Assembly: GCF_003018255.1 (NCBI RefSeq)
Contig: NZ_CP027440.1
Direction: 5' to 3' (one strand)
DNA from: Escherichia coli
Lineage (GTDB): Bacteria > Pseudomonadota > Gammaproteobacteria > Enterobacterales > Enterobacteriaceae
DNA: 64,000 nucleotides
Part shown: positions 34,113 to 42,331 of the stretch, piece by piece
Layout of the letters: each line of letters opens with the position of its first letter
Numbering within the stretch: position 1 is the first letter of the stretch
Made by a program: the position numbers and the translations under genes
Notes under the pieces: model-generated
The model's input: the letters and a program-made list of their open reading frames with translations, nothing else
Databases searched by the model: none
What the model was told of the DNA's origin: nothing

Positions 34113-34120
34113 TTTAACCC

Positions 34121-34146
34121 GGGCCAGAGAATTCTGGCCTTCTTAA
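34121..34146 (+). terminator. Hairpin after cysG
   Basis: ggccag-agaatt-ctggcc followed by ttcttaat. Confidence 0.45.
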
Positions 34147-34358
34147 TGACTCTTTTTATATATTCAGCAAATAAAACATAACCCCTTAATAAATATTATC
34201 TGCTAATGGGTTATATTCACCGTTACAGCGACTTACAAAATTAAGCCATTCACTCACTGACGCTAATTAAATATTCCTGTATCGTTCTTAATGAGCAGTC
34301 CGCTTATATTCATATAAACAATAAATATTAACCAATATATAATACATAGGGAATGTAA

Positions 34359-34526
34359 ATGAACAAATTTATTGAAGTTACACTGGTAGGTGCGGTACTG
34401 GCTACGTTAACTGCATGTACTGGTCATATTGAAAACCGTGATAAAAACTGCTCTTACGACTACCTGCTGCACCCGGCAATTTCTATTTCTAAAATCATTG
34501 GCGGTTGCGGTCCTACTGCACAGTAA
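34359..34526 (+). CDS. yhfL: Small lipoprotein YhfL
   Basis: Absent from the ORF track (55 aa): MNKFIEVTLVGAVLATLTACTGHIENRDKNCSYDYLLHPAISISKIIGGCGPTAQ with lipobox LTAC. Confidence 0.75.
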   Translation: MNKFIEVTLVGAVLATLTACTGHIENRDKNCSYDYLLHPAISISKIIGGCGPTAQ

Positions 34527-34566
34527 GTCTCTGACTGAAAGCGGCTAACACCGGTTTAATTGCCTG

Positions 34567-34600
34567 ACGCCCTCGGGGTTACCCGAGGGCGTATTTATTT
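34567..34600 (+). terminator. Intrinsic terminator after yhfL
   Basis: gccctcggg-gtta-cccgagggc followed by gtatttatttctg. Confidence 0.6.
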
Positions 34601-34632
34601 CTGCATTCTTTTCGAAAACATCATGCACAAGA

Positions 34633-35718
34633 TTAAATACTGGCAATACTCTCACGCAAAATCCGCAGCACCGTCTCTTCACCGCTGCGATTTGGGTTAA
34701 TACGAATCGCGTAATGTTCGAGTTGCGGATTCGCCTGGCGAAACGTTCCGGAAAGTCGATAAAAAAGTGGCGGAATTTCATATTTCGACTCTGCACCAAC
34801 CGGGTAAGGCAAGGCACCGCGCTTTTGCGCCTCTTCCAGCACTCTGGCGGCAATCGGCTGATGAAACTCGACAATCAACACTTTCGACTGCGCATTGGCA
34901 ATCACCGCGCTTTTCACTTCCGCCACTGCGCCACCGTTAAGTAAAGCCAGCAACCGTTCAGATACCCCCGCCTGCACCGCGTGCATCACTGGCGCAAACA
35001 CCAGCCCACGCAAGACTTCCAACGCCTGAGCGCCCTGAATCTGGCTGCCGCCGGAGTAGAGCGTGGCGCGAATACGGTTAATAACATCAGCATCGCCTAC
35101 CACCGCGCCAACACCCTCTGGCCCAAATAGCTTGAAGCAGGAAAATGTCGAGACATTCGCCCCGCATTCACAGCCGATTCGCGCTACCTTCATCACCGCA
35201 TAGTTGTCATCGGTTAACGCTGGAACACCTGCCGCGCGCAACGTTGCTAGCACGTCTGCCAGCACATAGCGGTCCTGCGGCTGCTGGCGCGTATGCTGCA
35301 CCAGCGCCGCATCCGGTTGTTGCGCTTCAATGATTTGTTTAAGCGCCGACAGATCATTGAAATCAGCCGTAATGAGCGTTAGCCCCATCTGCTCAATAAT
35401 AACCCGTGTCGTCGGGTAAACAGGCGCGTCATGCACCAGAAGACGCTGCCCCGGTATGAGCAAAGCTGCCAGCGCCGCACGGATCGCGCCAGTACCCGCG
35501 CCCTGTACCAGCGCCGCGGCCTGTGAGTGAAACGCGTCAGCCAGCACCTGTTCCACACGCTGGGTAATGCGCGGTTGATTCAGTCCCGGCGTTAATCCCA
35601 AATCACCGCAGGTAAGAAATTCGCTACCAGGAAAATGGCGGCAAATCGTGTCCACCAGCGCAAACTGCTTTTGCTGCGCCTCAATAATCGTCAGGCTTTG
35701 CAGAGGAAACGTCTTCAT
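34633..35718 (-). CDS. yhfS: Uncharacterised putative PLP-dependent enzyme YhfS
   Basis: 361-aa soluble protein; last gene of the yhfZ-to-yhfS minus-strand cluster; fold assignment from memory, not sequence-proven. Confidence 0.85.
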   Translation of the reverse strand: MKTFPLQSLTIIEAQQKQFALVDTICRHFPGSEFLTCGDLGLTPGLNQPRITQRVEQVLADAFHSQAAALVQGAGTGAIRAALAALLIPGQRLLVHDAPVYPTTRVIIEQMGLTLITADFNDLSALKQIIEAQQPDAALVQHTRQQPQDRYVLADVLATLRAAGVPALTDDNYAVMKVARIGCECGANVSTFSCFKLFGPEGVGAVVGDADVINRIRATLYSGGSQIQGAQALEVLRGLVFAPVMHAVQAGVSERLLALLNGGAVAEVKSAVIANAQSKVLIVEFHQPIAARVLEEAQKRGALPYPVGAESKYEIPPLFYRLSGTFRQANPQLEHYAIRINPNRSGEETVLRILRESIASI

Positions 35719-35729
35719 AGGTGCCTTCC

Positions 35730-37034
35730 TTAAGCCGGAACGAACAGGCCAAGCCAGTAAAGAACATTCAGCAGAATACCGGTGATCATTACTGCCACGA
35801 CCGGTGCCGCCATTTTCTGTACCGGACGGCCCAGGGATTCGTTGAGGAAGTAAATGGCAACTGCGATAGAAAATCCGGTATAACCCGCCATTTTAATTGC
35901 TGCGAAAATCGAACCGACCAGCAACGCCACTTCCATCAGCATATTCATGGCGTTACGGATGTTATCCGACGCATTACGCACCGACGGGTAGCGCCCCAGC
36001 CATTTGCCGATCGAACGAAGCAGCAGGACTTCCGCCGAAATAACCACTGCGCCTAATACCGCTGCAACCATCGGATTCGGCGAGAGATAGCCCACCGCAT
36101 AAACAAAGGTAAAGCCCGCAACTGCATACACACCCGTTGCTAACGCGGTGGTGGCAATCAACGGCACAAACCCCAGTCCGCGCATGAATTCTGCCAGAGC
36201 CGCCTGATTAATCAGCGTTTGCGATTGTTCCGGCGTTACGCCTGCGGAATATGCTTTCTCCAGTGTGAAGATCGAAACTTCGCTACCAGCAAAAATCTTC
36301 ATGCTGGCAACGGCGGCAATCAGCGCCCCGACAATAGCGATATACGGTAAGTTTTTGATAATCCGTGACGTGCGTTCTTCAAACACCGACATACCGCTGG
36401 CATCGATATCATTTTCATCACGATGACGCAGGTCATGAGTTATTGCGATCCCCAGCAGCATCACCATGCCAATAAAGATTTCGATGGATTCAGGGTTAAG
36501 ATGTGGGAAATAGCGCACGACGACCACACGGGTCATCAGTACCACCACGGCGGCGATCAGACTTTGCTTCCAGCCAAACTGGTAGAAAATCGCCACCAAC
36601 GGGAACAGTGCAAAAGCTGAAACCACCGGCGAGCTTAATTCCCCCAGGCTACCTAATACATCCACCGGTAGCGCGGTCAGCAGCTGGTTTACCGGTAACA
36701 GGCAAGTAAGGATCAACACGCCCCAGATAGCGCCAAGACCAAACGCCATCAGGCTGTTTATCGCCAGTACGCCGAGGATATCGGTAGGAAGAAAGAGTAA
36801 CCATGCGTTGAGCAGTCCGGTTTTCAGGGTAAAAGAGATCCCCACCGAAGCCACAAAACCAATGCTCAGACCAAAAGCGATACTCCCCGCCTCGCGACGG
36901 TTCATATAGCCTTCAATCAGTTGCGGCAGGATCGGGCGGATACCGTCATGAAAAACGGCCGCCGAGCGATGCGCCAGAAGCGATGTCATACCCGTCAGGC
37001 ACGCCACCACGATAATCTGAATATACAGATCCAT
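35730..37034 (-). CDS. yhfT: Uncharacterised polytopic inner-membrane protein (putative transporter) YhfT
   Basis: 434-aa, highly hydrophobic with multiple predicted TM helices. Confidence 0.85.
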   Translation of the reverse strand: MDLYIQIIVVACLTGMTSLLAHRSAAVFHDGIRPILPQLIEGYMNRREAGSIAFGLSIGFVASVGISFTLKTGLLNAWLLFLPTDILGVLAINSLMAFGLGAIWGVLILTCLLPVNQLLTALPVDVLGSLGELSSPVVSAFALFPLVAIFYQFGWKQSLIAAVVVLMTRVVVVRYFPHLNPESIEIFIGMVMLLGIAITHDLRHRDENDIDASGMSVFEERTSRIIKNLPYIAIVGALIAAVASMKIFAGSEVSIFTLEKAYSAGVTPEQSQTLINQAALAEFMRGLGFVPLIATTALATGVYAVAGFTFVYAVGYLSPNPMVAAVLGAVVISAEVLLLRSIGKWLGRYPSVRNASDNIRNAMNMLMEVALLVGSIFAAIKMAGYTGFSIAVAIYFLNESLGRPVQKMAAPVVAVMITGILLNVLYWLGLFVPA

Positions 37035-37045
37035 AGTCGTGCCTT

Positions 37046-37399
37046 TTATTTCAGATGGTTAATCAGCATCGGAATCGCGTGTTCGACGTGCTCAACGGAA
37101 AGCCCAAACGCCACTTTCCCTTCGGCGATCATTTTGGCGATATGTTCGTCTTTCGCTTTAATGCCTGGTTTGGCAATGGTGCAACTTTTGTTATAGCCAA
37201 TCACCGCGATGGCAATCGACAATGCCGCGCCCGCACCGGTATTACACGCGCCGATGTAGTAATCCAGTTGCCCGGATTTGACTTTCATTGCCGCTTCCAT
37301 GTCGTTGTGAATGAAAACTTCAAAACAGCCAGGAGCCGTCGCTTCAATGGTTTTTTTAATCTGCTCACGCTGTAAGCCTGCAACACCAATCTTTTTCAT
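37046..37399 (-). CDS. yhfU: Uncharacterised protein YhfU
   Basis: ATG at 37397-37399 (MKKIGVAGLQREQIKK..., 117 aa) with AGGA SD; the longer 130-aa ORF would overlap php by 29 nt. Confidence 0.8.
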   Translation of the reverse strand: MKKIGVAGLQREQIKKTIEATAPGCFEVFIHNDMEAAMKVKSGQLDYYIGACNTGAGAALSIAIAVIGYNKSCTIAKPGIKAKDEHIAKMIAEGKVAFGLSVEHVEHAIPMLINHLK

Positions 37400-37409
37400 G
37401 AGTCTGTCC

Positions 37410-38288
37410 TTATTGGAAAAATTGAGAGGGAGTTTCACGTAACATCACATCCACATCGGCCTGACTGAATCCTGACTGGCGCAATTGCGGAATAAAGGTG
37501 GTCAATAAATAGTCATAGCCATAACCACCGTTGGCTTTTAAATGGGAGCGGCGCGTAATATCCATCGACAGCATGACGCGGTTAAGCAAACCTCGGTCAC
37601 GTAGCGCGTGGAGCATCGCAATGCGCTTTTCGTCCGGGTAGTAACTGTTCTTACCGATGGTGTCGAACTGCACATACGCGCCGAGATCGATCATCTTCAC
37701 AATGTTGTCGAGGTTGTCTTTCAGATCGCAGTGACCAACGGTGACGCGCGAAAGATCAACTCCGTGGGCTTGCAGTAGCGCCAGTTGTTCCAGCCCCATG
37801 GTGCTAAAAGAGGTATGCGTGGAGATCGGGCGTCCGGTCTGGTTATGCGCCAGCGCGGCGGCAATAAATACCTTCTCTTCCAGCGGCGTGATTTTTCCTT
37901 CGCTGGAGCCTATCTCCGCGATGATCCCGGCTTTCAGCTCCGTGCCATCGATACCCTGTTCAATTTCATCGACCATCTCTTGCGCCAGTTCCTGCACGCT
38001 GCGGGTCGCCACATGTTCCGGGAAAAACGCGTCCTGGTAATAACCGGTACAGGCCACCACGTTGATCCCGGTTTCGCGCATTACATCGAGCATAAATTGC
38101 GCATTGCGCCCCATGTAACGGTTGGTCATCTCAATCACATTACGCACGCCCTGGGCCATCAGGTCGTTCATCTCCTGGCAAATGAACGCATACTGATCAA
38201 GGCGGCAGTCCACGTTGTTTTTAAAGCCGGAGAGATCAATATGCAGATGCTCATGGGCGAGGGTGTAGCCCGTCGGATCAAAACTCAT
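37410..38288 (-). CDS. php: Phosphotriesterase homology protein (amidohydrolase superfamily)
   Basis: 292-aa [23 protein letters not shown]... with HxH metal motif. Confidence 0.9.
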
Positions 38289-39511
38289 AGGGTGTCTCCT
38301 GCAAACCGGAGGGAGGAAAGAAAAGAGCGACCATTTTGTGGCGGTGGCGCGCGGAAAAATTCACATACGGTAGCCCCCACATCAGAAAGCGTGGTGAGCA
38401 CACCAAGCTGCGTAGCGACCATCCCTTGCTGATAAACCAGCACTGGCACCACTTCGCGGGTATGGTGGCTGTGACCAATGGTCGGATCGTTACCGTGATC
38501 CGCCATCACGACCAGGCAATCATCTGGCTGCATCGCCTCAATAAGCCGGGCAAGGTTACGGTCAACGACCTGCAAACGTTCCGCATAACGTGCGACGTCT
38601 TCTGCATGACCAGCGAGGTCGGTTTCCTGGATATTGGTACAAATAAACGCCGTCGGATGGGTGTTAAATTCGTTGAAGGTGATATCCATAATCCGCTGGC
38701 TATCCACCAGGTTTTGCCAGCTCACGCCATAAGGATTACTGGCAATATCCGCCACTTTCCCCACCAGCACGGTTGGTACGCCCACTTCATACAGTTTTTG
38801 TGGCACCTGCACTTTTTCATCGACGCCGTAGCCCATATGCACGACCTGGAAGCCGTTGTCATAAGCGCCAGAACGCGGCGCATTGATGCCAATAAAGCGC
38901 CCTTCTTTGCTTTCTGCGGCATCGAGGATGCGCTGGCTGTCGGTTAACAGGCCACCAAATGTAATGACCCGACCGACCTGTACCTGCTCACGCACGATAC
39001 GACCAATTTTGATTGCGTCGTCAAAAGAGATCACAGAGAGATTGGCGGTGATGTTATAGACCTGACCTAAATCCGCCTCGAGATTATCGCCAATCGCAAC
39101 CGCCTGATTGACCCACAGAAATTGCAGATCATCGCCACGGCGCTCCACCTGCCAGTCAGCGTTAAGTAATGCTTGCTCAACACGGTCAATCACATCGCGA
39201 AAGGGCATCCGTAGCGGCGGTAACGGGCGCGTGCCTAAAATTTCCTGATGCCCCATAAAGGTATCGCCACCTTCATGTTGCAGCTCTGCCACGCCCCAGG
39301 TTGCGGAGTCTGACGGCTGCATATCTCCAGGCGCATAACCTAATGCGTTGATTAGCCCCATTTTCTCCAGCATTGGTAGCTGCAAATGCGGCAACTGGCT
39401 CAGGATGTGACCACAGGTATTTGCCCCGGCATCCTGCGGACGCACCAACGTGACATCTTTCATTGCCCCTACGCCAAAGCTATCAATCACTAACACCACA
39501 AATCGCGCCAT
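38285..39511 (-). CDS. yhfW: Uncharacterised phosphopentomutase-like / metalloenzyme-superfamily protein YhfW
   Basis: 408-aa [17 protein letters not shown]... and ...[21 protein letters not shown] (DeoB-like metal site); 4-nt overlap with php. Confidence 0.85.
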
Positions 39512-40674
39512 TACGCCCCCAGAGAGTTTCCAAGACTGTCATAACGACCGACGATTTCTGGTTCGCCACGGTGAATACCGGACAGCAACACCACATCGCT
39601 ACGGGTGACAAAAATCTGCGTGCGAAAACAGAGCACTACTGCACTGCTTACCGGAAACTCGCCTGCCAGCGGCAGGGTGTAGTCGATACTGCTGTCATCC
39701 ACAGTTTTGAGATTGGTTTCAGTAATCTTTTGATTTTCTGGCGTAAACACCAGCGCATGTTGCGCGTGACCACGACGGTAGTAACCGCCGCCGTAGCAGT
39801 AGCTGTCGCCACGAAAATGATGGGAGATTTCACTTAACCAGAGCATCGCGATACGTTCAGGCTGATCGCCCTGCTGGTTTGCCGGAATCGTCCCCGTCAG
39901 CGCATGACCGGGTTCGGCATGAGTCACACCGTATTCCGCCAGCAATGGCAGCGAAGTGCAGCTGGTCGCAGAAGGTGCGTTCAGTTGCTCAATCGCAATA
40001 CCAGATTTCGCCAGTTGATCCCGTGCCTGTATCAGCGTGTGAAGATTCGGTGTCGGCAAAACTTTCCCGGCAGCCTCATCCCAAAGCAGGCAAGGGAAAT
40101 GGGTTAGTCCGGCTAAATGCAGCCCCGGCAGTTTCTTAATATCAGCAACCACCTCGTGCAGCGAATGCTGTACAAAACCGCTCTCCTGCCCCGGATAAAG
40201 AAAATCATCGTCGCTATAAACTTTGAGCAGCACAGACTGCACACGTCCGGCCTTCACCGCTGCTGCAGAAACTTCCCGCGCTTTATCGAGAGTAAACACG
40301 GTGATGACGTCAGTTCCCTGTGCAACGGCGTCAGAAACCTGGTGACAAGGGATTTGCACCAGATGCCCCTGATGCGCCAACGGCAGACCGGCGCGGCGCA
40401 TGACCCGCGCCTCTTTGTAATCCACCGCCACAATGCCGCTGTAGCCCAGTGCCAGAAGTTTTTCCGCCAGCCACGGATTACGGCCAAACTGCTTGGTCAT
40501 CAGATACAGTTCAATGCCGTAAAGTCGCGCCGTCTCAATCAGCCGCTTACCGTTTTCCAGTATCTGATCCACATCGATCACCCAGCTGTCCGGGGCGATC
40601 TTGCCCTGCTGCCACAAACTTAGTGCGGCGGAAATCAGCGCCGGGTTCTGGCGTTTCAATGCTTCTACAAACAT
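39511..40674 (-). CDS. yhfX: Uncharacterised alanine-racemase-fold PLP-binding protein YhfX
   Basis: 387-aa; fold-type III PLP barrel by memory ([13 protein letters not shown]); 1-nt overlap with yhfW. Confidence 0.85.
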
Positions 40675-40757
40675 CTTGTTGCCTCGTTTCTGTTCCTTGA
40701 ATTAAATATTCATTTTTCTGAATATTTAGATTATGCGACGTGGATTTGTCGGGAGCT

Positions 40758-41120
40758 TCAAACCTCTTCGTTAGCAGCCATCCATAATCCATAAAGATTA
40801 GCCAGCAAATAGCCTTCTTCACACGGCTTAACTTCCAGTGCGAATTCCTTCAACAACACCTGATGCAATTGCACAACGGCTTGCCAGTGGCTGGATTGCG
40901 CCAGCTCTGCCAGCAATTCGTCATCCAGCGGCTCTATTTCTTCACCACGGCGACTGCGCATCAGTGCGCTCGCCATATGTGTCATCGCCATCATTCCTTG
41001 CTCGCTGCGCACCGGTAGATGACACTCTGTTTCCAGTACGTTGACGACCTGCATCATGCCTTTGCAGATGTCCTTATCAATAACGCCTGCCTCACAAAGC
41101 AGGTTGAGTCTGGTTTCCAT
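40758..41120 (-). CDS. yhfY: Uncharacterised small protein YhfY
   Basis: ATG at 41118-41120 (METRLNLLCEAGVIDKD..., 120 aa); the 160-aa ORF-track version would overlap yhfZ. Confidence 0.75.
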   Translation of the reverse strand: METRLNLLCEAGVIDKDICKGMMQVVNVLETECHLPVRSEQGMMAMTHMASALMRSRRGEEIEPLDDELLAELAQSSHWQAVVQLHQVLLKEFALEVKPCEEGYLLANLYGLWMAANEEV

Positions 41121-41136
41121 TTCAGATGCCTTTCGT

Positions 41137-42042
41137 TTAATAACTCGGTTCCTGTTCCCCACTGACCACTCGTTGTTGATGGGCAAGCAGGGCCTGTTTA
41201 TCAACAACTGCACGCAGCAATTGTTGCATTGGGTAATCATCGACTCGCGTCAAAACTACGGCTTCGGTGGCCTGTAAAAATCGCGGATCGTCTGTGAGCG
41301 GCGTCGCTTCTAATCCCAGCATGGTCAGTTCGTTTTCCGCCACCACGTTCCAGATCACCGCATCAACATCGCCTTTAACAATGCGTTGTAAACTCTCGTG
41401 ATAAGAGAGATCGACTCGTTCCACATCACTATCGCCAAAAAAGACATCGGTCATGATTTTCTGATCCGCCGAACGGTTATCCAGCCCCACGCGATTCACG
41501 TTTGCGGACTCGCCTTTACGGCAAATCAACTGGTGCTCGCCAACGTAGGTGTGCGGCCCCAACTCCAGCGCGAGGCATAACCCTTTTTGCGTGAGATAAC
41601 TTTCCGCCGCCAGTCGGGAAACAACCGCCATGTCATACACGCCGTTAAGTAAACACTCCACGCGAATATCCGCGCCGCGCATGTGCGCATAGTAAAAAGG
41701 AATACCATCAAACTGAGCTTTCAATCCGCTCGCCAGGCCTTCGTACAAACGGGTATAGGGCAAGGGCATCGCGCACACCACATTGTTGATATCCACATGA
41801 CTCAGCAATGCTTTGTTATCCATTTCCACCAGATAACTGCCATTACGCCCACGGCGTTCTATCCGTATCGCTCCGCTTGATTCCAGCGTTTTCAACGCGG
41901 CCTGCGTCAGGCCAACGGATGAACGGCATTCAGTTGCCAGTTCATCTATGGTTTTCAGTCGATTACCGCACTTTTCACCCAACAAATAACGGGCCAGTGT
42001 CGTGATGACGACGCCTTCTTTTTTGATAAACGTTCGACGCAT
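41137..42042 (-). CDS. yhfZ: Putative HTH transcriptional regulator YhfZ
   Basis: 301-aa with N-terminal winged-helix-like segment (LARYLLGEKCGNRLKTIDELATECRSSVGLTQAALKTLESSGAIRIERRGRNGSYL). Confidence 0.8.
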   Translation of the reverse strand: MRRTFIKKEGVVITTLARYLLGEKCGNRLKTIDELATECRSSVGLTQAALKTLESSGAIRIERRGRNGSYLVEMDNKALLSHVDINNVVCAMPLPYTRLYEGLASGLKAQFDGIPFYYAHMRGADIRVECLLNGVYDMAVVSRLAAESYLTQKGLCLALELGPHTYVGEHQLICRKGESANVNRVGLDNRSADQKIMTDVFFGDSDVERVDLSYHESLQRIVKGDVDAVIWNVVAENELTMLGLEATPLTDDPRFLQATEAVVLTRVDDYPMQQLLRAVVDKQALLAHQQRVVSGEQEPSY

Positions 42043-42160
42043 AATAAATTTTCAGTAAATTGAATATTTATATCTTCAGGAATTTGAAGATAAGGCGCAA
42101 CAGCGAGATGTGGAAACGGCGAGGCACTTCACATTTTTTCGGATTATTGCAAATGAGGAT

Positions 42161-42186
42161 AAAAAAACCGGGTTTCCCCGGTTTCA
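42161..42186 (-). terminator. Intrinsic terminator downstream of trpS
   Basis: Minus strand reads ccgggg-aaa-cccgg followed by ttttttt. Confidence 0.55.
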
Positions 42187-42208: not shown

Positions 42209-42299
42209 GCCTGATGCGCTACGCTTATCAGGCCTACATTTCCTTGCAATATGTGCATTACTTTGTAGGCCGGATAAGGCGTTCACGCCGCATCCGGCA
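42209..42299. repeat. BIME: two inverted REP elements
   Basis: gcctgatgcgctacgcttatcaggcctac (42209-42237) and gtaggccggataaggcgttcacgccgcatccggca (42265-42299). Confidence 0.8.
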
Positions 42300-42331
42300 T
42301 GAACAAAGCGCAATTTGCCAGCAATAGTGAA

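Follow-up and report, generated by a model that had tools for sequence, protein, structure and literature searches.

Among the closest described parallels to the yhfS-yhfZ cluster, a set of eight minus-strand genes in a 64-kb stretch of Escherichia coli DNA (the window), are permeases and catabolic routes that draw on the phosphoenolpyruvate (PEP)-dependent phosphotransferase system (PTS). Like the PTS Enzyme II complexes that have a Cys-type EIIB (i.e., the lactose/cellobiose, ascorbate and galactitol systems), the cluster encodes a small protein with a conserved histidine (YhfY), an alpha/beta protein with a cysteine loop (YhfU) and a membrane protein of ~430 aa (YhfT); this trio is linked to Enzyme I and HPr in relatives, and the pathway contains no kinase. 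It differs from Enzyme II in that YhfT shows no EIIC similarity, YhfU is nearer to RpiB, the histidine carrier of the yhf system would be a PRD rather than an EIIA fold, and the phosphotransfer role is a predicted one. YhfY also resembles the PRD regulators (the BglG/LicT antiterminators and the MtlR/LicR/LevR activators) in its invariant histidine and in the arginine seven residues on. Unlike these regulators, with their two PRDs and an RNA- or DNA-binding effector, YhfY is a single PRD of 120 aa in which NCBIfam, Pfam and the family alignment revealed no other domain, and DNA binding is assigned to a separate protein, YhfZ, that carries a periplasmic-binding-protein-like sensor.

Parallels to the enzymes of the cluster are found in routes for amino sugar acids and phospho-sugars. 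Salmonella dgaABCDEF encodes a PTS pathway for D-glucosaminate. Amino-aldonate routes of this kind combine uptake of an amino sugar acid (through the PTS in dga) with deamination by an enzyme dependent on pyridoxal 5'-phosphate (PLP), an early enzyme of the amidohydrolase superfamily and a product that is 2-keto-3-deoxygluconate (KDG) or its 6-phosphate (KDPG). In the ong route of Pseudoalteromonas, part of the oxidative chitin pathway, the conversion of D-glucosaminate to KDG is carried out by OngC, a fold-type III PLP enzyme (PMC9537276). Compared by description, the yhf cluster shares with these routes the KDG kinase and Eda genes that lie beside it in one relative (locus L074), and it differs in that YhfX belongs to a separate fold-type III subfamily and in the addition of a phosphomutase, an RpiB-fold protein and a different permease. 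The genes for the phospho-sugar lactonases of the phosphotriesterase (PTE) family, such as Lmo2620/Bh0225 and the Mycoplasma enzymes, lie in operons of the PTS type. Php has in common with these lactonases a binuclear-metal TIM barrel in which a glutamate (E125) replaces the carbamylated lysine, and it matches the phospho-furanose lactonase model NF045706 at 7e-28; its 97.7 bits, however, fall far below the cut-off of 630, and its best relatives in the PDB are lactonases of the SsoPox type (2e-38).

Two further systems provide more distant comparisons. The PTS-dependent dihydroxyacetone kinase DhaKLM is a precedent for Enzyme I/HPr-type domains in a cytoplasmic catabolic operon that phosphorylates a substrate not translocated by a classical EII. 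An HPr domain fused to a pathway protein is also seen in the yhf system (Php::HPr, L094), which, unlike DhaKLM, has no Dha-type kinase or ADP-binding subunit and always includes a membrane protein. In the EF_0829-type cluster, the partners of the PRD protein are a small Cys protein rich in glycine ('SFCGS') and DUF4310/DUF4311 membrane proteins. YhfY gave a sub-threshold match to the small PRD family of the EF_0829/AHA_3910 cluster (TIGR03582; 5e-6, 26.8 bits against a cut-off of 69), which we treat as a lead only, and a YhfY profile search aimed at EF_0829/SFCGS clusters returned close orthologues only.

The genes themselves have long been known, and their orphan status, now of ~25 years, is real: no pathway for yhfS-yhfZ was found in the open full-text literature or among the 2026 RefSeq names. 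All eight products are 'putative' or 'uncharacterized' in K-12 RefSeq, and structural-genomics structures exist for four of the proteins (YhfS, YhfX, Php and the C-domain of YhfZ), none with an assigned function. An initial annotation of the window had found neither a substrate nor a phenotype for the cluster. The literature and the K-12 names agree with it on the substrate, whereas the absence of a phenotype needs to be amended by two indirect observations. A ΔpdxB strain is rescued by multicopy php via 'pathway 2', which leads to 2-oxo-3-hydroxy-4-phosphobutanoate (PMC3010111), and a yhfZ knockout is among the hits of a peptide-resistance screen, without functional information (PMC12147183). 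A review from 2021 still counted Php among the unknowns (PMC7954711), and yhfW is mentioned in a study of CstA, likewise without functional information. The reduced-genome strain DGF-298, which lacks yhfY through yhfL, grows robustly (PMC10652928), and the cluster is therefore dispensable in the laboratory.

Our favoured interpretation, which we put forward tentatively, is that the cluster encodes a catabolic route, controlled by YhfZ and wired to the PTS, for an amino compound that derives from a carbohydrate and is handled as phosphate esters. As far as the literature searched shows, the predicted operator and two-unit organisation, the fold of YhfU, the PRD signature of YhfY and the recurrent link to Enzyme I and HPr are new. 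With eight genes present in >90% of complete E. coli genomes, the cluster is among the largest intact blocks of the E. coli 'y-ome'.

Conservation and transcriptional organisation

Related loci were collected with a YhfT-motif scan of one genome per species (~100,000 species), which detected relatives at 481 places; 80 loci were kept. The scan was built on an alignment of 13 YhfT sequences, as a 64-sequence alignment had no sufficiently conserved stretch, and gene content was determined by tblastn and clustering of open reading frames (ORFs). Among the 80 loci, yhfT was present in 79, yhfU in 75, yhfZ in 71, yhfW in 70, yhfY in 66, php in 62 and yhfX in 59. The remaining gene, yhfS, was found in just 40 loci, being absent from Yersinia, Vibrio and several Clostridia, and is thus an accessory member of the cluster. 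Some Yersinia were also without yhfW, and Enterovibrio was without php. The set Z-Y-U-T-php-(S)-X-W is kept together, with some of the orders rearranged, in Enterobacterales, Vibrionaceae, Fusobacteria (Sebaldella), Clostridia and Bacilli; yhfU adjoins yhfT in almost every locus, and yhfY is nearly always encoded beside the regulator gene. Metagenomic relatives whose YhfT is just 27-38% identical retain the order PRD-DUF2620-YhfT-PTE-YhfX-Metalloenzyme. The adjacency of the eight genes is far beyond chance, and its persistence across distant groups and at these levels of YhfT identity indicates that they form one functional unit. The YhfT family as such is rare, with 305 representatives at 50% identity among 1.84 billion proteins. 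Within E. coli, a query made up mostly of the cluster had a one-place match covering at least 80% of its length in 5057 of 5426 complete genomes, with ~7% lacking such a match.

A 26-bp palindrome, TAAATATTCA-N6-TGAATATTTA, has exactly two matches in the window, where 0.02 would be expected. One copy, with perfect 10+10 arms, lies inside an 83-nt gap, 28 nt upstream of the yhfX start codon, and the other, TAAATTTTCA-N6-TGAATATTTA, ends 2 nt upstream of the start codon of yhfZ. When sites within 150 nt upstream of each gene were counted in relatives, those of the Enterobacterales were located before yhfZ (38/39) and yhfX (41/41), with none before yhfU (0/46) or php (0/45). The corresponding counts for yhfZ, yhfX, yhfU and php were 14/17, 3/20, 0/20 and 0/17 in Vibrionaceae, and 8/13, 1/13, 3/13 and 0/13 in Firmicutes, where the half-site is ATATACA/TGTATAT and the structural genes start with yhfU. 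Sebaldella carries three copies of AATTTTCA-N6-TGAAAATA. Since the motif changes together with the cluster and stands at the head of both gene blocks, it is best explained as the operator recognised by YhfZ. The palindrome is, on this comparative evidence, likely to be a YhfZ operator, and the copy in front of yhfZ probably serves autoregulation. YhfZ is identified by NF041241 (373 bits; cut-off 260) and by the Pfam domains HTH_41 (1e-18) and YhfZ_C (5e-84), and the structure of its C-domain (2OZZ) is labelled 'hypothetical protein'. A further palindrome-like element, AATCCTCA-N6-TGAAAATT, was observed ~170 nt inside the php coding region, near 8890-8950, in the Vibrionaceae loci L048, L050, L051, L056-L061 and L076, where it may be either an internal operator or conserved coding sequence.

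The shared palindrome in front of yhfZ and yhfX points to two transcription units, an autoregulated yhfZY and yhfXW-php-yhfUTS, so that, of the one or two transcripts expected earlier, two are likely. This layout matches a database operon that a study of riboswitch entropy lists only as a positional landmark (PMC4448311). A riboswitch or leader in the 83-nt gap was considered and rejected, as the gap holds a DNA palindrome and an Rfam search at E<=1 found no riboswitch or other Rfam element in the cluster region. A sigma-70 consensus scan returned fewer sites than in shuffled sequences and none before yhfZ or yhfX, and a scan of the window gave no assignable internal terminator within the cluster.

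The four enzymes and the YhfY-YhfU-YhfT trio

The catalytic residues of the four enzymes are conserved in their families. In Php (NCBIfam PRK09875, 651 bits against a cut-off of 486), H12, H14, E125, H158, H186, D243, K213 and Y216 are invariant in 62 sequences and include the components of a binuclear metal site, i.e., the HxH motif, a bridging carboxylate, two histidines and one aspartate. Its structure was first solved in 1998 (PDB 1BF6, 4LEF). As with the phospho-furanose lactonase model, Php remained below the cut-off for organophosphate hydrolase (NF041153, 101 vs 500 bits). YhfW matches PRK12383 (728 bits; cut-off 254), and its nearest PDB entries are phosphopentomutases (4e-29). It fell below the cut-offs of the DeoB models (TIGR01696, 140 vs 341; PRK05362, 178 vs 256), which it matched in two stretches that skip the cap domain; this fit, limited to the core, implies that the cap domain and the substrate differ from those of DeoB. 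D10, D83, T/S84, D298, H302, D338, H339 and H350 are conserved in 69-70 of 70 YhfW sequences and, from what is known of the DeoB motifs, we take them to be the core metal ligands and the Thr/Ser nucleophile.

YhfX consists of the Pfam domains Ala_racemase_N (1.7e-21) and YhfX-like_C (2e-37), and its structure (PDB 4KBX) is described as 'uncharacterized'. Alanine racemases (1e-4) and D-threonine aldolases (1.5e-3) are at roughly the same distance from the family profile, and the Orr model gave 29.8 bits against a cut-off of 480. The PLP lysine K61 is invariant in 59 sequences, as are H285, Y299 and R301; Y292, a candidate counterpart of the racemase tyrosine, is 93% conserved. YhfS combines YhfS-like_C (1e-44) with Aminotran_1_2 / Cys_Met_Meta_PP, and a structure is available under the name 'uncharacterized protein YhfS' (PDB 4J8L). 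Its family profile is nearest to the Cys/Met gamma-family (8e-10), namely methionine gamma-lyase and cystathionine gamma-synthase, and both the PLP lysine K196 and D170 are invariant in 40 sequences.

The initial annotation counted two small proteins among the products. Both can now be given an identity, YhfY as a PRD domain and YhfU as a protein with an RpiB-like fold. The Pfam PRD match of YhfY is weak (0.009). In an alignment of 34 homologues, H48, A52, R55 and E101 are invariant, and the H48...R55 pattern is, as read from the alignment, the PRD signature of a phosphorylatable histidine, giving YhfY both the fold and the conserved histidine type of a PRD. A second PRD histidine is kept solely in Clostridia and in a few other divergent homologues, and the YhfY homologue of L094 was picked up by hhalign with 96.6% probability.

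The predicted structure of YhfU (pLDDT 96) is an RpiB/LacAB-type alpha/beta fold. Its best structural matches are true isomerases with the RpiB-type fold, well ahead of low-molecular-weight phosphatases (9.1) and PTS EIIB (7.2-7.5), and the Pfam LacAB_rpiB match reaches only E=0.16. Cys52 is invariant and accompanied by Thr/Ser54 in all 37 sequences of the family, in a glycine-rich loop leading into a helix, and hhalign pairs Cys52-Asn-Thr54 of YhfU with the catalytic Cys66-Gly-Thr68 of E. coli RpiB. The active site of RpiB also comprises an Asp-His after strand 1, a His-Asn motif and a C-terminal Arg/His phosphate-binding helix contributed by the partner subunit. These remaining residues are not conserved in the YhfU family, whose 37-sequence alignment has no invariant or near-invariant His or Arg, and the protein stops at residue 117, ~30 residues short of RpiB, without the C-terminal phosphate-binding helix. 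The Cys52 loop of YhfU may be read as phospho-carrier-like, in a protein that is structurally nearer to RpiB than to EIIB.

For YhfT, also modelled with a pLDDT of 96, no solved structural relative was found, and a search of AFDB50 returned its own family only. Profile comparison with ChbC-type EIIC gave a probability of 0.2%. In both Fusobacteria loci, the next ORF after yhfT carries a partial amidase-signature motif (L053:11347-12378 and L080:1410-2450), and the Clostridium citroniae AFDB entry G5HJH7 is a 768-aa YhfT::amidase fusion, which hints at amide hydrolysis tied to the membrane step. A YhfT homologue of 36% identity stands alone, without other yhf genes, in L082 (1068-3765), where it adjoins an Orn/Lys/Arg decarboxylase-family gene in a housekeeping region with Gin, a SpoIIIAA-like gene and thymidylate kinase; this homologue may represent a functionally distinct subfamily. 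Two AFDB50 entries from eukaryotes, A0A077ZJH0 ('Gasdermin-D [Trichuris trichiura]') and A0A0A2WJZ4 (Beauveria bassiana), are near-identical to E. coli YhfT and almost certainly reflect bacterial contamination or chimeric gene models in eukaryotic assemblies.

PTS linkage, proposed pathway and competing explanations

Genetic linkage to both Enzyme I and HPr was observed in relatives. An Enzyme I gene lies directly 3' of yhfW in L067, and an HPr gene follows yhfW in L070 and L073. The order in L094 is a ribose-type sugar ATP-binding cassette (ABC) transporter, the YhfY homologue, YhfU, YhfT, a Php::HPr fusion and Enzyme I, the fusion being a single 415-aa ORF (L094:6137-7384) in which a PTE domain of the Php type, with HxH at residues 35-37, is joined to an HPr domain that has a GLHARPA motif near residue 341. 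A cellobiose-family EIIC, above the equivalog cut-off, is found at the cluster end in L091, and L047 and L054 have IIB/IIC/IIA genes of the cellobiose type on the flanks of the cluster. Genes of sugar metabolism and transport were also detected. NagB, above the equivalog cut-off, follows the cluster in four of the five Bacilli loci; in L074 the cluster is immediately preceded, on the same strand, by Eda and two PfkB-type KDG kinases; L088, L094 and L092 have sugar ABC transporters of the ribose and NgcE-like types next to it; a Cof-type sugar phosphatase comes after the cluster in L083; and D-2-hydroxyacid dehydrogenases are near it in L069 and L073. No kinase family was conserved with the cluster across the 80 loci. 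Most other flanking genes (the cysG, nir and trpS flanks, hydrogenase, a glycyl-radical enzyme, IS21) were set aside as substrate clues because they are taxon-specific and uninformative.

An uptake-plus-catabolism function, as the initial annotation had proposed, is in keeping with the intact catalytic residues of Php, YhfW, YhfX and YhfS, with the missing conserved kinase and with the PTS, NagB, sugar ABC, EIIC and KDG kinase/Eda neighbours; the substrate is a matter of prediction. In the route that we favour, YhfZ would bind the 10-6-10 palindrome before yhfZY and yhfXW-php-yhfUTS, probably as a repressor, and the substrate would act as inducer. YhfY (PRD, His48), YhfU (RpiB fold, Cys52 loop) and the membrane protein YhfT would make up a PTS-coupled uptake module in which the phosphoryl group passes from PEP to Enzyme I, to HPr and then to the histidine of YhfY and/or the cysteine of YhfU. 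The substrate would in this way enter metabolism as a phosphate ester without a dedicated kinase, and the phosphorylation state of the relay would signal its availability to YhfZ. PTS-coupled phosphorylation is suggested by the absence of a kinase, by a YhfY-YhfU-YhfT trio with one invariant His and one invariant Cys loop, and by the Enzyme I/HPr copies and the Php::HPr fusion.

Downstream of uptake, Php may open a lactone or lactam ring or remove an acyl group, YhfW may shift the phosphate to the position required by the next steps, and YhfX may perform PLP chemistry at the amino-bearing carbon (epimerisation or deamination), as a racemase/epimerase or an ammonia-lyase acting on an alpha-amino acid-like centre. 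YhfS, where present, could provide a second PLP-dependent elimination or transamination. The idea of phosphate-ester chemistry draws on the DeoB-like YhfW, the likeness of Php to phospho-furanose lactonase (below cut-off), the rescue of ΔpdxB by php, which in multicopy supplies PLP synthesis with a phosphorylated C4 acid (PMC3010111), and the RpiB fold of YhfU. By analogy and from scattered neighbours, which makes this the weakest part of the proposal, the substrate class would most likely be that of the oxidised or conjugated amino sugars. Candidates are an oxidised or otherwise modified amino sugar, e.g., a 2-amino-2-deoxy-aldonate or its lactone, or a glucosamine conjugate, and the products could feed glucosamine-6-phosphate/fructose-6-phosphate or KDG/KDPG. 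D-Glucosaminate was considered and is an unlikely substrate, since K-12, which carries the cluster, presumably does not grow on it.

A bolder form of the same route is possible, although we think it unlikely: YhfY, YhfU and YhfT would constitute a new PTS Enzyme II family, with the PRD taking the place of EIIA, the RpiB-fold protein that of EIIB and YhfT that of EIIC. The PRD state would feed back on YhfZ, and the phosphorylated oxidised amino sugar would pass to Php, YhfW and YhfX. Several observations weigh against PTS-wired uptake and against the substrate class proposed with it. PRD domains are known as regulatory phospho-acceptors rather than as carriers. YhfT resembles no EIIC family in sequence, nor convincingly in structure, none of the EIIA families was recognised by NCBIfam in the eight proteins or by Pfam in the six that were scanned, and the cluster in the E. 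coli window contains no PTS gene. The neighbours that hint at a substrate occur in just one to four loci each and are mutually inconsistent (NagB vs KDG kinase/Eda vs D-2-hydroxyacid dehydrogenase), and the additional conventional transporter of several loci, an ABC system or a classical EIIC, means that YhfT need not be the importer there. The literature searched yielded no experiments linking any of the eight proteins to a substrate.

Several of these observations give weight to a serious, if on balance doubtful, alternative in which the catabolic system is the same and its PTS link is regulatory only. YhfT would be a conventional ion-coupled carrier or would assist other importers as a membrane partner, YhfU would be a soluble RpiB-type isomerase, and YhfY a relay of HPr/PTS status (catabolite control) to YhfZ, with the phosphate supplied by an unlinked kinase or already present on the imported substrate. 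Such an arrangement accommodates the true isomerases that are the best structural matches of YhfU and the retained RpiB catalytic Cys/Thr pair, the lack of EIIC homology in YhfT, the missing EIIA and the classically regulatory role of PRDs, as well as the ABC sugar importers or classical EIIC beside the cluster in L088, L091, L092 and L094 and the adjacent PfkB-type kinases in L074. It sits less well with a YhfU of 117 aa that is without the other RpiB active-site elements and the C-terminal phosphate-binding helix, and with the near-constant yhfU-yhfT adjacency, which would be unusual for a soluble isomerase. Additionally, regulation alone gives no ready account of dedicated Enzyme I/HPr copies in the operon or of a Php::HPr fusion, and no kinase is conserved across the loci. 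An improbable explanation is that the substrate is not a carbohydrate but an amino-acid lactone, thiolactone, lactam or small amide (e.g., homoserine lactone, homocysteine thiolactone, the lactam of lysine or ornithine, or an aminoacyl amide) that Php or an amidase opens, YhfX racemises and YhfS degrades. Php does belong to a lactonase-rich PTE family with SsoPox-type enzymes as its best non-self PDB matches, YhfS and YhfX are nearest to methionine gamma-lyase/cystathionine gamma-synthase and to alanine racemases, respectively, and amidases occur next to YhfT in Fusobacteria and fused to it in C. citroniae. The phosphomutase, the RpiB-fold partner, the PRD/HPr/Enzyme I association, NagB, Eda/KDG kinase and the sugar-type ABC transporters would all go unexplained, however, and YhfS, the enzyme that fits best, is dispensable, half of the loci being without it.

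That the cluster is a module for salvage, repair or biosynthesis, for instance one that recycles envelope amino sugars or repairs damaged metabolites, appears very improbable. NagB together with a phosphomutase would allow glucosamine-6-phosphate or precursors of the glucosamine-1-phosphate type as products, overproduced Php can feed a biosynthetic pathway (PMC3010111), and YhfT and YhfU are very strongly conserved within E. coli (99.5-100%). Such a module is difficult to reconcile with the patchy distribution of the family (481 places among genomes of ~100,000 species), with a dedicated autoregulated sensor-regulator typical of inducible catabolism, with the robust growth of DGF-298 after deletion of the whole cluster (PMC10652928) and with the ~7% of complete E. 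coli genomes that have no 80% match. The view that the eight genes are independently transcribed neighbours of unrelated function could appeal to the failure to assign a strong sigma-70 consensus promoter or an internal terminator, yet it is effectively refuted by conservation: the gene set stays together, with rearranged orders, in five bacterial groups, start and stop codons overlap, the same palindrome precedes both units, and Php::HPr and YhfT::amidase fusions exist.

Altogether, the yhf system is best seen as an inducible PTS-associated catabolic operon with a real chance of including a new transporter family. The defined predicted operator and the candidate repressor YhfZ provide a route to derepress a silent operon, the predicted phosphorelay has two residues that can be altered by point mutation (YhfY His48 and YhfU Cys52), and the substrate classes have been short-listed. 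If the trio is an Enzyme II family, the few known families of PTS transporters would gain a new member, which is a rare event, and a PRD domain would prove able to serve as phosphocarrier. If only the more conservative reading is true, the operon would still provide a new nutrient route, which may matter in gut and marine niches.

Gene boundaries and flanking sequence

The ORF listing and the RefSeq annotation of K-12 and of the closest complete genome (98.5% identity) define eight intact genes in 34633-42042, and the features of the region are listed in Table 1.

Table 1. Genes and sequence elements of the yhfS-yhfZ region (positions in the window)
Feature	Position	Strand	Description
yhfS	34633-35718	-	fold-type I PLP enzyme, Cys/Met gamma-lyase-like group; optional cluster member
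yhfT	35730-37034	-	434-aa polytopic membrane protein, PF10797; presumed permease
yhfU	37046-37399	-	DUF2620, 117 aa, truncated RpiB/LacAB-fold protein; near-constant neighbour of yhfT
php	37410-38288	-	binuclear-metal amidohydrolase, phosphotriesterase/lactonase family
yhfW	38285-39511	-	DeoB-like phosphomutase, alkaline-phosphatase superfamily, own cap domain
yhfX	39511-40674	-	fold-type III (alanine-racemase-like) PLP enzyme, own C-terminal domain
yhfY	40758-41120	-	stand-alone single PRD domain, 120 aa
yhfZ	41137-42042	-	transcription regulator: N-terminal HTH_41 and C-terminal periplasmic-binding-protein-like sensor domain
Operator-like perfect palindrome	40703-40728	.	TAAATATTCA-N6-TGAATATTTA, inside the 83-nt gap before yhfX
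Second palindrome copy	42045-42070	.	TAAATTTTCA-N6-TGAATATTTA, before yhfZ
trpS terminator	42164-42185	-	hairpin, 9-bp stem then TTTATCC
GC-rich hairpin between convergent yhfL and yhfS	34567-34592	+	11-bp stem, 9 GC pairs; downstream cluster boundary

The gene identities and tight coupling given in the initial annotation agree with the ORF list, the RefSeq annotation and the NCBIfam/Pfam domain calls, and the same domain calls support its descriptions of two PLP enzymes, Php, YhfW, YhfT and the helix-turn-helix regulator YhfZ. From yhfS to yhfZ the spacings are 11, 11, 10, -4 (php/yhfW overlap), -1 (yhfW/yhfX overlap), 83 and 16 nt, which reproduces exactly the gaps of 10-16 nt, the 4-nt and 1-nt overlaps and the single 83-nt gap noted before. 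The ORF list offers longer alternatives for two of the genes, namely a yhfU extended by 13 codons from a GTG start (to 37438) and a yhfY extended by 40 codons from an ATG at 41240, which would overlap the 3' end of yhfZ. The homologue alignments of YhfU and YhfY start at MKKIG and METRL, respectively, and thus favour the shorter annotated starts. All eight ORFs are full length, gap-free and collinear with those of K-12, at 95.6-100% amino-acid identity (YhfU 100%, YhfT 99.5%). At the nucleotide level, identity to K-12 was 95.5% for the cluster, 97.3% for the cysG-yhfL flank and 98.0% for trpS. The mild excess divergence of the cluster is concentrated in yhfS, yhfX and yhfW, with YhfT and YhfU almost invariant.

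On the upstream side, the terminator hairpin of trpS and REP repeats stand between trpS and the cluster, and the terminator insulates the cluster from upstream transcription. The REP-type palindromic repeats are located at 42210-42304, between trpS and yhfZ, and account for the ~190,000 scattered places returned by megablast. The only Rfam match at E<=1 was a REP-derived naRNA4 outside the cluster, which was sub-threshold (38 bits vs 59.5). On the downstream side, the hairpin between yhfL and yhfS has a T-run on the + strand only, which makes it primarily the terminator of yhfL.

In K-12, the five-gene fructoselysine operon frlABCDR lies between yhfL and yhfS. It is absent from the window (34113-34632), where yhfS comes straight after yhfL, and the same uninterrupted junction without frl was found in 2104 of 5426 complete E. 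coli genomes. As frl is missing here and in 39% of E. coli genomes, whereas yhf is retained, frl is a variable insertion that is independent of yhf, and a functional link between the two was set aside for this reason.

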